DNA from: Escherichia phage vB_EcoP_EP32B
Sequence record: OR544955
Length of the DNA: 64,000 bases
Direction: 5' to 3' (one strand)
In this document: positions 10,281 through 62,573 of the stretch, piece after piece
Position numbering within the stretch: position 1 is the first letter of the stretch
Layout of the letters: each line of letters opens with the position of its first letter
Made by a program: the position numbers and the translations under genes
The notes under the pieces: generated by a model
Told to the model about the DNA's origin: nothing
The model's input: only the letters and a program-made list of their open reading frames with translations
Databases searched by the model: none

Positions 10281-10772
10281 ATGAATATTTGTTTAGGCAG
10301 TACAATTCCTAAGGGTTACGTAATTGATGTCACTACTTGGGAAAATGACGGTGACAACTATAAAACCAAAACATTATTTGGTGTAGAAGAGCATGAGCTC
10401 CAACAGTTTAAATATCTCTTGAAGAAATTTAAGAGTCGTCATTCTAGTACTAAAGCTGAACGTTACTGTGGTAATACACTATTCAGTGATTGCTCGCTTT
10501 TAATCTATGAATACTTGGTTGAAGGACTGTTCTCAGACCAGCTTTATCCAGAATTCATTAAAAAGGTCTTTGATATTGAAGTCGACCTTGGTAATAAATC
10601 TGAAGAAGACGAATCACGTGTATTTGACCTGTTCCAAGGTCTCATTGATATTCTTGGCCATGCTTCTGAATATTATGACTATGATTTCTTGCGTGTAGTT
10701 GAACGTGTTGAATTCGCTTATATTGAAGAAGAAATTGTTTTGCCGACTGTTAAAATGATTGATTTGCTTTAA
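10281..10772 (+). CDS. hypothetical protein (163 aa)
   Basis: ORF with upstream GTGAGTAA-ATG context. Confidence 0.6.
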   Translation: MNICLGSTIPKGYVIDVTTWENDGDNYKTKTLFGVEEHELQQFKYLLKKFKSRHSSTKAERYCGNTLFSDCSLLIYEYLVEGLFSDQLYPEFIKKVFDIEVDLGNKSEEDESRVFDLFQGLIDILGHASEYYDYDFLRVVERVEFAYIEEEIVLPTVKMIDLL

Positions 10773-11029
10773 GAATTATGTGTTATTATTAATTCATACC
10801 CTCTATTACCAAAGGTGCTCTAAAGTGCCTTTCATAATAGAAAGTTATTTAGGCCCTGTAGCTCAATGGTGCAGTAGCTGCTCTGGAAAACCTGTTCCAA
10901 ATTGCAACAGAAGAACGCGAAGAAGTTACATTATGGATTGAAGATAACGCAGGTCTGAATCTCCAGGACGCGATCTCATTATCCCACAATAGTATCACTG
11001 TTCAAGGCTGGGTATCATCTAGTTATTCT

Positions 11030-45072: not shown

Positions 45073-47757
45073 ATGAAAGAATTTTACTTAACGGTTGAAC
45101 AGATTGGTGATTCAATTTTTGAACGTTACATCGATTCTAATGGCCGTGAACGTACTCGTGAAGTAGAATATAAACCATCACTGTTTGCTCATTGTCCAGA
45201 AAGTCAGGCTACGAAATATTTCGATATCTACGGTAAGCCGTGTACTCGTAAGTTGTTCGCTAATATGCGTGATGCCTCCCAATGGATTAAACGTATGGAA
45301 GATATCGGACTTGAAGCACTTGGCATGGACGATTTCAAATTGGCGTATTTGTCTGACACTTATAACTATGAAATCAAATACGACCATACAAAAATTCGTG
45401 TGGCTAACTTCGACATCGAAGTAACATCTCCGGACGGGTTCCCTGAGCCGTCACAAGCAAAACATCCGATTGATGCTATCACCCATTATGACTCAATTGA
45501 CGACAGGTTCTACGTATTTGATCTATTGAATTCTCCATATGGTAATGTAGAAGAATGGTCTATCGAAATTGCAGCTAAGCTTCAAGAACAAGGTGGTGAT
45601 GAAGTTCCATCCGAAATTATCGATAAAATCATTTATATGCCGTTCGATAACGAAAAAGAATTGTTGATGGAATATCTCAACTTCTGGCAACAGAAAACTC
45701 CTGTCATTTTGACTGGATGGAACGTTGAGTCATTTGATATTCCATATGTGTATAACCGAATCAAGAATATTTTTGGCGAATCTACTGCGAAACGTTTATC
45801 ACCACATCGTAAAACTCGTGTTAAAGTTATCGAAAACATGTATGGTTCTCGTGAAATCATTACATTGTTCGGTATCTCTGTTCTTGATTATATTGACCTT
45901 TACAAAAAATTCTCTTTTACCAATCAACCGTCGTATTCTCTGGATTACATTTCAGAATTTGAATTGAACGTTGGTAAACTGAAATACGACGGTCCTATTT
46001 CTAAACTTCGTTATAACATCATCGACGTATATCGTGTATTGCAAATTGATGCTAAACGCCAGTTCATTAACTTGAGTTTGGACATGGGTTATTATGCTAA
46101 GATACAGATTCAATCTGTGTTTAGCCCAATTAAAACATGGGATGCTATTATTTTTAATAGCCTTAAAGAACAAAACAAGGTGATTCCACAAGGTCGTTCG
46201 CATCCAGTTCAACCTTACCCGGGTGCTTTTGTTAAGGAACCTATTCCAAATCGATACAAATATGTAATGAGTTTCGACCTTACATCTCTGTATCCAAGTA
46301 TTATTCGCCAAGTGAATATTAGCCCGGAAACAATAGCAGGAACGTTTAAAGTAGCTCCACTGCATGATTATATTAACGCAATCGCTGAACGTCCTTCAGA
46401 TGTGTACAGTTGCTCTCCTAACGGCATGATGTATTATAAAGACCGTGACGGTGTTGTTCCAACTGAAATCACTAAGGTCTTTAATCAACGTAAAGAACAT
46501 AAAGGTTATATGCTTGCAGCTCAACGTAATGGTGAAATAATTAAAGAGGCATTGCATAATCCTAATCTTTCTGTTGACGAACCATTAGATGTTGATTATC
46601 GTTTCGACTTCAGCGATGAGATTAAAGAAAAGATTAAAAAGTTGTCTGCTAAATCTCTTAATGAAATGTTGTTTAGAGCTCAACGTACTGAAGTTGCAGG
46701 TATGACTGCACAGATTAACCGTAAATTGCTTATCAACTCACTTTATGGTGCACTTGGAAACGTTTGGTTCCGTTATTATGATTTGCGTAATGCTACTGCA
46801 ATCACAACATTCGGACAAATGGCTTTACAGTGGATTGAACGTAAAGTTAATGAATATCTGAATGAAGTTTGCGGTACAGAAGGTGAAGCTTTCGTTCTTT
46901 ATGGTGATACAGACTCTATTTACGTATCTGCTGATAAAATTATCGATAAGGTTGGTGAATCTAAATTCCGTGATACCAACCATTGGGTAGACTTCTTAGA
47001 TAAGTTCGCTCGTGAACGTATGGAACCTGCTATTGATAGAGGTTTCCGTGAAATGTGCGAATACATGAATAATAAGCAACATTTGATGTTCATGGACCGA
47101 GAAGCTATCGCTGGTCCTCCGCTCGGTTCTAAAGGTATTGGTGGATTTTGGACTGGTAAGAAACGTTATGCATTAAACGTGTGGGATATGGAAGGTACTC
47201 GTTACGCTGAGCCTAAACTCAAAATCATGGGTCTAGAGACTCAGAAATCTTCGACACCTAAAGCAGTACAGAAAGCTCTTAAAGAATGTATTCGTCGTAT
47301 GCTTCAAGAAGGTGAAGAATCATTACAAGAATATTTTAAAGAGTTTGAAAAAGAATTCCGTCAATTGAATTATATTAGCATCGCGTCGGTATCTTCTGCG
47401 AATAACATTGCTAAATATGATGTCGGTGGATTCCCTGGCCCCAAATGTCCGTTCCATATTCGTGGAATTCTGACATATAACCGAGCTATCAAAGGTAATA
47501 TCGATGCACCGCAAGTTGTAGAAGGTGAAAAAGTATATGTTCTGCCTTTACGTGAAGGAAACCCATTCGGTGATAAATGTATCGCATGGCCTTCTGGTAC
47601 GGAAATCACTGATTTAATCAAAGATGATGTACTTCATTGGATGGACTACACGGTTCTCCTTGAGAAGACATTTATTAAACCACTTGAAGGATTCACATCA
47701 GCAGCTAAACTCGATTACGAGAAGAAAGCATCTCTGTTCGATATGTTTGATTTTTGA
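45073..47757 (+). CDS. 43: DNA polymerase gp43 (family B)
   Basis: 894 aa; exonuclease motif FDIEV, polymerase motifs DxxSLYPS and YGDTDS. Confidence 0.95.
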   Translation: MKEFYLTVEQIGDSIFERYIDSNGRERTREVEYKPSLFAHCPESQATKYFDIYGKPCTRKLFANMRDASQWIKRMEDIGLEALGMDDFKLAYLSDTYNYEIKYDHTKIRVANFDIEVTSPDGFPEPSQAKHPIDAITHYDSIDDRFYVFDLLNSPYGNVEEWSIEIAAKLQEQGGDEVPSEIIDKIIYMPFDNEKELLMEYLNFWQQKTPVILTGWNVESFDIPYVYNRIKNIFGESTAKRLSPHRKTRVKVIENMYGSREIITLFGISVLDYIDLYKKFSFTNQPSYSLDYISEFELNVGKLKYDGPISKLRYNIIDVYRVLQIDAKRQFINLSLDMGYYAKIQIQSVFSPIKTWDAIIFNSLKEQNKVIPQGRSHPVQPYPGAFVKEPIPNRYKYVMSFDLTSLYPSIIRQVNISPETIAGTFKVAPLHDYINAIAERPSDVYSCSPNGMMYYKDRDGVVPTEITKVFNQRKEHKGYMLAAQRNGEIIKEALHNPNLSVDEPLDVDYRFDFSDEIKEKIKKLSAKSLNEMLFRAQRTEVAGMTAQINRKLLINSLYGALGNVWFRYYDLRNATAITTFGQMALQWIERKVNEYLNEVCGTEGEAFVLYGDTDSIYVSADKIIDKVGESKFRDTNHWVDFLDKFARERMEPAIDRGFREMCEYMNNKQHLMFMDREAIAGPPLGSKGIGGFWTGKKRYALNVWDMEGTRYAEPKLKIMGLETQKSSTPKAVQKALKECIRRMLQEGEESLQEYFKEFEKEFRQLNYISIASVSSANNIAKYDVGGFPGPKCPFHIRGILTYNRAIKGNIDAPQVVEGEKVYVLPLREGNPFGDKCIAWPSGTEITDLIKDDVLHWMDYTVLLEKTFIKPLEGFTSAAKLDYEKKASLFDMFDF

Positions 47758-60705: not shown

Positions 60706-61728
60706 ATGGCTGAATGGATAGATAATGAATTTGCTTATCGTGCGTTTTCTCACCTACCTCGTTTTAGACAAATCAATAATTCAAGTACATTTAAATTAAC
60801 ATTTCGATGTCCAGTTTGTGGCGACTCCCAGACAGATGCAATGAAAGCTCGCGGATGGTATTATGGCGGTACTCCTGGTAATGTACATTGCTATAACTGT
60901 CAATACCACAATACAATTTCAGGATACTTAAAAGAGTATGATGAAGAGCTTTATCGCGAATATCTAATGGAAGTTCGTAAAGAAAAAGCTAGAATGGAAC
61001 CAAAGATTGAAAAGGTTCCTGAACATAAACCAGAACCGGAGAAAAAGACTATAAATTCTTTGCCGTCTTGTTCTCGTCTAGACAAGTTGCCTGAAGAGCA
61101 TCCTATTGTGAAATATGTTAAGTCTCGGTGTATTCCTAAAGAATCGTGGAATAGATTATGGTTCACATTAGAATGGCCTAAATTGGTCAACAAGATTCAA
61201 CCTGGTACGTATAAGAAAGAGATTCCCGAGCCACGTTTAGTGATTCCTATTTTTAATAAAGACGGGAAGGCCGAGTCATTCCAAGGACGTGCACTTCGTA
61301 AAGATGCTCCTCAGAAATATATCACTATTAAAGCGTTTGAGTCTGCAACAAAAATTTATGGCGTTGAACGTGTTAAGGAAGGAGACGTCTGGGTAATGGA
61401 AGGCCCTATTGATAGTTTATTCATACCCAATGCAATCGCTATTACAGGCGGCTCGATAGATTTAGATGTGGTACCATTTAAAGAACGACGGGTATGGGTA
61501 ATGGATAATGAACCTAGGCATCCGGATACTATAGCTCGCATGAAGCGATTAGTTGATGCAGGCGAACGTGTCATGTTCTGGGATAGAGCTCCATGGAGTT
61601 CAAAGGATGTGAATGATATGGTAATGAAAGAAAATGCAACACCACAAGAAATTTTAGAATATATGAAACAGAATATTTCAAGTGGGTTGCATGCTAAAAT
61701 GAGATTATCTCGTTATTCGAAGATTTAA
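60706..61728 (+). CDS. 61: DNA primase gp61
   Basis: zinc ribbon CPVCGDS...CYNCQ and TOPRIM region VWVMEGPIDS / VMDNEPRH. Confidence 0.9.
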   Translation: MAEWIDNEFAYRAFSHLPRFRQINNSSTFKLTFRCPVCGDSQTDAMKARGWYYGGTPGNVHCYNCQYHNTISGYLKEYDEELYREYLMEVRKEKARMEPKIEKVPEHKPEPEKKTINSLPSCSRLDKLPEEHPIVKYVKSRCIPKESWNRLWFTLEWPKLVNKIQPGTYKKEIPEPRLVIPIFNKDGKAESFQGRALRKDAPQKYITIKAFESATKIYGVERVKEGDVWVMEGPIDSLFIPNAIAITGGSIDLDVVPFKERRVWVMDNEPRHPDTIARMKRLVDAGERVMFWDRAPWSSKDVNDMVMKENATPQEILEYMKQNISSGLHAKMRLSRYSKI

Positions 61729-61922
61729 ACAAGCCCTATAATAGCAAAGGCCAAATCAACTACAGTATCCAATGGAACAGAAGGAACTATAATACCATGG
61801 GCAACTAACAATGGTGCAATCCCGAAGTTCCATGAAATAATGCCACCTACAACTATTGCAGCGATAGCATTTTTCTTTTTATTGCCTTTAATAGCGTTGA
61901 TTAACGATGGAAGTTTAAACAT
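61725..61922 (-). CDS. small membrane protein (65 aa)
   Basis: only ORF in the 61729-61996 gap; minus-strand AAGGAG Shine-Dalgarno about 6 nt before ATG; two hydrophobic segments. Confidence 0.5.
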   Translation of the reverse strand: MFKLPSLINAIKGNKKKNAIAAIVVGGIISWNFGIAPLLVAHGIIVPSVPLDTVVDLAFAIIGLV

Positions 61923-62011: not shown

Positions 62012-62326
62012 ATGGCGCACTTTAATGAATGTTCACAACTTATTTCTGGTGTTGATAAAGCAGAAGAAGCTTATTTTAATGCTCTGATTCACGAAGATAA
62101 AGACCCACTTCAGGTAATGCTTGATATGCAGAAATCTTTACAGGTTCGTCTGGCAAATGACAAGCCTGAACATAACAAACATCCTGATGAATTGGCTACT
62201 GCCGGTGATGTTGTTGATTGGCTGCGTAATCAGAAAGATTATATTGATGATGAATTCCGTGAACTGTTGACTTCACTTGGTGGTATGATTATAAATACAC
62301 CTGTAATTAAACAACAAAGGAGTTAA
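62012..62326 (+). CDS. 56: dCTP pyrophosphatase gp56-like (MazG-type), short form
   Basis: MAHFNECSQLISGVDKAEEAYF...ATAGDVVDWLRNQKDYIDDEFRELLTSLG; 104 aa, shorter than T4 gp56 as recalled. Confidence 0.65.
   Translation: MAHFNECSQLISGVDKAEEAYFNALIHEDKDPLQVMLDMQKSLQVRLANDKPEHNKHPDELATAGDVVDWLRNQKDYIDDEFRELLTSLGGMIINTPVIKQQRS
62290..62297 (+). promoter_or_regulatory. late promoter TATAAATA upstream of soc
   Basis: exact TATAAATA about 32 bp before soc ATG, within the 3-prime end of gene 56. Confidence 0.5.
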
Positions 62327-62328
62327 TT

Positions 62329-62472
62329 ATGGGTGGTTATGTAAACATCAAAACCTTTACGCATCCTGCTGGTGAAGGCAAAGAAGTTAAAGGTATGGAA
62401 GTTTCTGTACCGTTTGAGATTTATTCAAACGAACATCGGATTGCTGATTCTCATTACCAAGTAAGTGGTTAA
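62329..62472 (+). CDS. soc: Soc-like small outer capsid protein, shortened (47 aa)
   Basis: GYVNIKTF...HYQVSG resembles Soc N-terminus and extreme C-terminus; AAGGAG Shine-Dalgarno; terminator immediately downstream. Confidence 0.55.
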   Translation: MGGYVNIKTFTHPAGEGKEVKGMEVSVPFEIYSNEHRIADSHYQVSG

Positions 62473-62481
62473 ATAATTTAA

Positions 62482-62506
62482 GGAATCCTTCGGGATTCCT
62501 TTTTTT
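62482..62506 (+). terminator. UUCG-tetraloop hairpin terminator after soc
   Basis: GGAATCC-TTCG-GGATTCC followed by TTTTTTT. Confidence 0.65.
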
Positions 62507-62573
62507 GTTTCTACAGTTTACAACCACTAAAAACTGTGTTAAGATATTTTTACTTACTCAAGAGGAGAACAAT

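Follow-up and report, generated by a model that had tools for sequence, protein, structure and literature searches.

Short gene 56 and soc reading frames in the genome record of Escherichia phage vB_EcoP_EP32B are probably products of record building rather than phage biology

The window analysed here is a 64,000-nucleotide stretch of the genome record of Escherichia phage vB_EcoP_EP32B (OR544955), whose close relatives are Mosigvirus (RB69-like) genomes with 97-98% identity. The genes of interest are found in a locus with the T-even type of order, namely gene 61, a small minus-strand ORF, gene 56, soc and a terminator. The relatives aligned with this region are JK36, NicPhage, tp3 (O157 typing phage 3) and EP32a, and the features of the locus are the following.

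60706-61728: primase, gene 61
61725-61922, minus strand: conserved 65-aa small ORF between gene 61 and gene 56, intact
62012-62326, plus strand: gene 56 ORF, 104 aa, ATG start (WPK29095.1 by exact look-up)
62012-62287, plus strand: retained codons 1-92 of gene 56 (dCTPase/dUTPase), ending in EFRELLTSLGGM, recognised by identity to orthologues
62287-62288: deletion junction 1 (gene 56), which follows GGTGGTATG (codon 92) and ends just before TTATAAATA, with 0-1 nt of microhomology
62288-62326, plus strand: tail of the 104-aa ORF, 12 foreign codons (IINTPVIKQQRS) and a TAA stop, in the soc promoter/ribosome-binding site region
62290-62297, plus strand: TATAAATA, T4-type late promoter motif for soc, at a conserved position
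62317-62322, plus strand: AAGGAG, soc ribosome-binding site, ending 6 nt before the ATG and kept in relatives
62329-62472, plus strand: soc allele of 47 aa, ATG start, Soc residues 1-44 followed by VSG (residues 76-78 of 78) (WPK29096.1 by exact look-up)
62459-62461: deletion junction 2 (soc), 93 nt in frame after CATTACCA, covering Soc codons 45-75, its position being ambiguous by 1 nt
62480-62507, plus strand: intrinsic-terminator-like hairpin (AAGGAATCCTTCGGGATTCCTT) and T-run after soc, intact and kept in relatives

JK36, NicPhage, tp3 and EP32a all have the 65-aa ORF annotated in this location, and it has no Pfam match. The 104-aa ORF next to it encodes the N-terminal part of gp56. Its residues 1-92 are 100% identical to residues 1-92 of two 173-aa gp56 proteins, P0019 and that of tp3, and in the alignments the family sequence ends at residue 92, with residues 93-173 missing. 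A first-pass annotation made from the sequence alone had suggested that this dCTPase-like ORF may lack the C-terminal region of gp56, and the alignments bear this out. It had also named orthologues of the same short length as evidence that would speak against a truncation; these were looked for, and the orthologues are full length. The ORF has 171 homologues at E <= 1e-5, each of which covers only 88% of the query, and gp56 orthologues are 171-173 aa long in nearly all of the 120 homologue clusters listed (166 aa in one). Among these clusters, homologues of about 100 aa come solely from tiny metagenome contigs or have no contig record: P0040, P0106, P0002 and P0003 are encoded on contigs of 1-3.6 kb, and P0043 is without one. 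These five proteins (~94-114 aa) were considered as a natural short form of gp56; they end differently from the window protein and hence do not represent the same allele.

The missing part of gp56 contains the invariant elements DQLEIKFE, D135, H138-F139, N162, N165-F166, R168-Q169 and Y173, and alignment with orthologues confirms that the C-terminal blocks DQLEIKFE.ID..HF and NF.RQ..GY are absent from the window protein. The 104-aa ORF matches no Pfam family at E <= 1; the full-length gp56 of JK36 matches PF08761 (dUTPase_2) via residues 141-173 (29.6 bits, cut-off 22.9). In an AlphaFold model of an orthologue (pLDDT 84), the full-length protein is made up of seven helices, and the window fragment corresponds to helices 1-4, without helices 5-7. 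A Foldseek search gives weak but consistent matches (E 0.2-0.4, probability ~0.9) to DCTPP1/RS21-C6 and MazG-like pyrophosphohydrolases; these alignments extend over about 130 columns and exceed the length of the fragment. A PDB sequence search with gp56 yields only a marginal dUTPase match (E 0.28). If the record is taken literally, the fragment is very unlikely to be an enzyme and should be inactive because helices 5-7 of the seven-helix MazG-like fold would be lost. The window ORF resembles the gp56 of T4 and RB69 (dCTPase-dUTPase, an all-alpha MazG-like NTP pyrophosphohydrolase of PF08761) in that it occupies the same locus between the gene 61 primase and soc but differs in lacking residues 93-173, including the DQLEIKFE-D--HF and NF-RQ--Y blocks. 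The 12-residue tail (IINTPVIKQQRS) is identical to the last 12 residues of a 74-aa DUF7422 ORF that precedes soc in tp3, and the DNA that encodes it is intergenic in JK36 and EP32a. The tail was also considered as proof of a tp3-type parent and rejected as such, since this DNA is common to both types of locus.

The soc allele is shortened internally. The 47-aa ORF matches the Soc family PF16855 with an E-value of 1.4e-10 (41.9 bits versus a cut-off of 27) at positions 1-43 of the 74 in the profile only, and the full-length Soc of JK36 matches positions 1-65. Among the aligned proteins of the same 90% cluster, Soc is 78 aa long in eleven and 82 aa in one, and residues 45-75 (FPSEKAAY...AAMFTPTP), which are nearly invariant in the orthologues, are absent from the 47-aa product whereas the terminal VSG is retained. 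The first-pass annotation had suggested that Soc retains its N-terminus and last residues and has lost an internal segment in frame, and this is precisely what the alignment reveals. The AlphaFold model of Soc is unusable (pLDDT 46), and the placement of the deletion on the fold follows the published description, according to which the beta-tadpole attaches to the capsid through its head (a three-stranded sheet and two helices) and trimerises through the hairpin tail, which is made of strands 1 and 2 (PMC7602432). On this basis, the 93-nt deletion would remove both Soc helices and the third strand, so that the product, taken literally, would keep the beta-hairpin tail and lose most of the capsid-binding head. 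The complete beta-tadpole fold, with hairpin tail and a head that includes two helices and a third strand, is accordingly not represented in the 47-aa protein. Compared with RB69-type Soc (PF16855; 3IG9/3IGE), for which the crystal structure 3IG9 contains the full-length 78-aa protein, the window allele agrees in residues 1-44, in the terminal VSG and in the conservation of the expression signals but lacks residues 45-75.

All late-gene signals of soc, that is, TATAAATA, the ribosome-binding site and the terminator, are present in the window and conserved in the relatives compared. Within the 3' tail of the 104-aa ORF, the motif TATAAATA precedes the soc ATG by 31 nt. It is not enriched in the window (6 occurrences versus 8.2 expected), and its significance derives from the conserved position upstream of soc, which is invariant in JK36, NicPhage, tp3 and EP32a. 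By analogy with T4, this motif probably acts as the soc promoter. The first-pass annotation was correct in placing the motif within the end of the gene 56 ORF; the promoter itself, however, is in its normal place, and it appears inside gene 56 because the first deletion makes the ORF read through the soc promoter/ribosome-binding site region.

The first deletion amounts to 594 nt relative to the arrangement of tp3 and NicPhage and to 250 nt relative to that of JK36 and EP32a. Against the latter type, it removes gp56 codons 93-173 and the spacer; against the former, additionally two small ORFs. It covers precisely the stretch in which the two locus types, as represented by tp3 and JK36, differ, and either of them could have given rise to the junction sequence, so that the parental type is ambiguous. 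The soc deletion is located 172 nt from this site. Both ORFs stay open after the two deletions, an outcome with a joint chance of about 1 in 9; this is mildly suggestive of selection, contrary to a technical origin.

Neither junction has a counterpart elsewhere. The 1.2-kb region is matched in three pieces by each of the 40 relatives listed. Junction-spanning 70-mers, searched with an E-value limit that only a spanning match can pass, find nothing for either junction in 50,697 phage records, a collection that does not include OR544955 itself. The exact patterns of both junctions have no match in IMG/VR, metagenome contigs or GTDB genome contigs; the wild-type control pattern used in these scans matched one IMG/VR contig. 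By exact look-up, each of the two proteins occurs on a single contig, that of vB_EcoP_EP32B, and no Logan or ENA contig is recorded as encoding the 104-aa protein. Both junctions are therefore absent from every independent sequence searched. The direct repeats at the deletion ends measure 0 nt for gene 56 and 1 nt for soc and do not account for the deletions by slippage between repeats.

These two deletions are only a small part of those present in the window. Against tp3, the nearest relative, there are 17 deletions (77, 614, 4925, 93, 35, 390, 29, 146, 446, 133, 216, 190, 298, 88, 160, 594 and 93 nt) that range from 29 to 4925 nt, mostly 29-614 nt, and sum to about 8.5 kb of missing sequence. 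Alignment with each of three references (tp3, JK36 and EP32a) places the breaks at identical window positions, and together with small private deletions, the record contains about twenty. The two Mosigvirus species represented by tp3 and JK36 have 126 full-length ORFs in common; the window lacks 32 of these or encodes them only in part, and the corresponding number for EP32a is 9. The entire EP32B record is 156,698 bp long, about 12 kb below the 167-170 kb that is typical of its Mosigvirus relatives. The 17 junctions do not have the direct repeats typical of slippage in vivo: microhomology is 0-2 nt at 15 of them as scored by script, and at 16 once the value for soc is corrected from 4 nt, which resulted from a 94-nt mis-registration, to the 1 nt given by the alignment, where the deletion is 93 nt. 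The mean microhomology by script is 1.3 nt versus 0.7 nt in the null. Several of the deletions affect essential genes; those noted individually are the following.

6312: gp4/gp2, 77-nt deletion, residues 1-125 of gp4 fused in frame to the ATG of gp2
10870/10871: tRNA region, 4.9-kb deletion from 19 nt into tRNA-Met to inside a 65-aa ORF
19972: tk, 446-nt deletion, thymidine kinase without codons 1-19, two small ORFs lost
34225: nrdH, 298-nt deletion, glutaredoxin gene without its start, 105-aa ORF lost
41514/41515: gene 46, 88-nt deletion, reading frame shifted beyond residue 500 and Walker B region LILDEVFDG... lost
about 46019-46030: gene 43, private 27-nt in-frame deletion, DNA polymerase without the nine residues ESNHQRYIS before YNIID
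48093: kpsF-like arabinose-5-phosphate isomerase-like gene of the cytosine-arabinosylation cluster, 160-nt deletion
9428, 16533, 35250, 59618, 59771 and 60156: small deletions of 2, 4, 2, 24, 4 and 12 nt, respectively, private to the window against the three references

The gp4/gp2 deletion, which is not found in tp3, JK36 or EP32a, takes the C-terminus of gp4 (head completion) and the ribosome-binding site of gp2 (DNA end protector). The 4.9-kb deletion eliminates tRNA genes and about ten ORFs and accounts for the published statement that EP32b has no tRNA; the same study gives a burst size of 200 (PMC11657129). In gene 46, the deletion removes the Walker B motif (LILDE) of a Rad50-like protein, and in gene 43, it immediately precedes YNIID, which we take to be the exonuclease Exo III motif of gp43. 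Some of the small private deletions cause frameshifts, e.g., in a regB-like 179-aa ORF and a 216-aa AdfA-like ORF. The record thus combines many private deletions, including those in essential genes, with a phage that is reported to be viable. A gp46 defect in T4 arrests DNA replication, and a phage with the combined lesions should not yield a burst of 200.

The record of the sister phage EP32a (OR544954; regions L003, L006 and L007 here), which is 163.9 kb long and starts exactly at the primase ATG, seems to share this problem, though less severely. Some of its deletions are private (e.g., 219 nt at tp3 positions 108824-109043), and others are found at the same places as in the window, namely in gp46, a 228-aa ORF, a 319-aa ORF and others, with boundaries shifted by 1-11 nt. 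Given these differences between the boundaries, which are seen at gp46, gp254, gp218 and other sites, the events in the two records are independent and do not reflect inheritance. Half of the EP32a breakpoints (11 of 22) fall within 11 nt of a window breakpoint (p ~1e-16), one of these 11 being the natural absence of the gene 56-soc cassette rather than a deletion. At gp46, EP32a lacks 89 nt at the same spot where the window lacks 88 nt; the segment is present in 59 of the best 60 phage records, and EP32a alone shares the deletion. Because EP32a is intact at both focal sites, this argument does not apply directly to the gene 56 and soc deletions.

The boundaries of the deletions are also not random with respect to natural variation. 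In the comparison of two independent genomes, tp3 and JK36, 11 of 34 boundaries differ by at most 1 nt from the position of the first or the last variable site, versus 7.4% expected (p = 2e-5). Five or six deletions are hypervariable patches cut out at their edges, with 29-67% of the positions differing between tp3 and JK36 against an average of 4.9%; the gene 56 deletion belongs to this group. The soc deletion and several others do not correspond to such patches. Excision at patch edges fits the loss of allelic patches, either from mixed related templates or through a guide carrying the other allele, and does not fit spontaneous deletion in vivo.

Taken together, these observations make it quite likely that the short gp56 and the 47-aa Soc are deletions that arose in the building of OR544955 and are not part of phage biology; we infer a technical origin for them. 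Under this explanation, dropouts at the stage of assembly, scaffolding or consensus would have been joined without gaps, and stretches with two coexisting alleles in the data, or in which reads misfit a guide sequence, may have been the ones dropped. Such loss by allele or guide misfit appears to be the most plausible mechanism. EP32b was sequenced with 2x150 Illumina reads after enzymatic fragmentation and assembled with SPAdes 3.13, and the report gives no finishing or coverage information (PMC11657129). The record resembles gappy drafts deposited as complete genomes, in which gaps between scaffolds or stretches without coverage are simply joined up, in being about 12 kb short, in its many private deletions and broken essential genes, and in that a sister record from the same pipeline is hit at shared sites, but is unlike them in the lack of Ns and ragged ends and in that the methods text claims plain de novo assembly. 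The clean, N-free junctions count against an artefact.

Several specific causes of dropout were considered and set aside. Ragged, error-rich contig ends are not indicated: window-private substitutions show no excess within 10 nt of the junctions (0 of 276), in a test that is biased by the trimming of BLAST alignment ends. Base composition does not set the deleted segments apart, given that their GC content is 0.34-0.47 (0.66 in one 35-nt segment) compared with 0.37 overall. A simple two-haplotype bubble, with EP32a as the second haplotype, is rejected as a general rule because the boundaries of the gp4/gp2 and soc deletions miss the SNPs between EP32a and tp3; excision at patch edges still holds for a subset of the deletions.

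The main alternative is that the 93-nt soc deletion is genuine and results in a Soc-deficient capsid, the lesions in gene 56 and in essential genes being artefacts. A real deletion of this kind would be viable because soc is non-essential, as indicated by the normal growth of T4 Soc null mutants (PMC3012670). It is in frame, leaves the promoter, ribosome-binding site, stop codon and terminator intact, and lies off the patches that are hypervariable between tp3 and JK36, so that patch dropout is not an obvious cause. The junction is nevertheless unique in all the collections searched and has just 1 nt of microhomology, and another of the approximately 20 record-specific deletions is found 172 nt away. 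Moreover, EP32b remains viable for 24 h at pH 11 in the same way as the Soc-intact EP32a (PMC11657129), whereas Soc-minus T4 is alkali-sensitive (PMC3012670). The pH data are crude, and they agree with an artefact of the record. A genuine soc deletion is therefore unlikely.

It is also conceivable, and quite improbable, that the deleted molecules are real but represent a minority in a mixed lysate, namely defective genomes, rearranged ones or library chimeras, which the assembler picked in place of the wild-type path. An assembler given reads that genuinely cross a junction yields a clean join without Ns, and mixed templates are plausible considering that EP32a and EP32b share the host strain and the study. 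This scenario, however, requires that about 20 independent minority junctions each beat the wild-type path, offers no microhomology at these junctions and is in practice a sub-case of the record artefact.

Finally, all the deletions could be real, in which case EP32b would be a heavily deleted Mosigvirus with a vestigial Soc and no functional dCTPase, perhaps with DNA that partly contains cytosine. The record was deposited as the complete genome of a plaque-purified phage (PMC11657129), and a precedent for a gene 56 defect in a cytosine-modifying T-even phage is provided by the T4 'dC' strains (gene 56-, denB-, alc-, with or without gene 42-), in which the lack of gp56 is compatible with plaque formation only when denB and alc are mutated as well (PMC1635256). 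Both of these genes are outside the window. The 160-nt deletion in the arabinose-5-phosphate isomerase-like gene, which belongs to the DNA-modification cluster, points in the same direction. The relatives carry the arabinosyl-hydroxymethylcytosine gene set including gene 42 (dCMP hydroxymethylase), and gene 42 is intact in the window, which argues against a coherent switch to cytosine DNA; unlike in the 'dC' strains, the gene 56 lesion is accompanied by many unrelated deletions. This possibility is highly improbable because it needs the joint survival of the gp4/gp2, gp46 (no Walker B), gp43, gp56 and other lesions, is inconsistent with a burst of 200 in view of the gp46 defect, and provides no biological rationale for the independent deletions at the same places in EP32a or for excision at the edges of allele patches. 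That EP32b is a viable T-even phage of the hydroxymethylcytosine type without the catalytic half of dCTPase and with only the hairpin half of Soc is thus hardly credible. A real lesion in gene 56 would call into question the long-held view that phages which replace cytosine with hydroxymethylcytosine cannot do without dCTPase, and viability without this half of the enzyme would imply an unknown way to exclude dCTP from DNA or to tolerate cytosine.

With an artefact of the record as the preferred explanation, the biology implied by the first-pass annotation, namely that the phage has a short dCTPase together with a mini-Soc, is probably not real because the deletions are unique to the record and part of a pattern that disables essential genes. 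The two records, OR544955 and to a lesser extent OR544954, are labelled as complete genomes and have many internal dropouts, which calls for caution with regard to database quality. Truncated entries for a 'dCTP pyrophosphatase', a 'head decoration protein', gp46 and other proteins are already present in nr and in clustered protein databases. Such entries can mislead gene-content comparisons, pan-genome counts (e.g., 'no tRNAs') and safety assessments for phage therapy.

Independent of the origin of these deletions, the interval between gene 56 and soc is a variable locus in Mosigvirus, with at least three arrangements. In JK36 and EP32a, it contains no ORF; in tp3, NicPhage and moha, it encodes a 57-aa ORF and the 74-aa DUF7422 ORF; and in a phage contig within an E. 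coli assembly (ABRBDB010000009.1), it contains a single 93-aa ORF. In the loci compared, the interval spans positions 2334-2378 (L001), 2333-2722 (L002) and 10522-10844 (L012). The soc late promoter is located at the right-hand edge of the interval in every arrangement.
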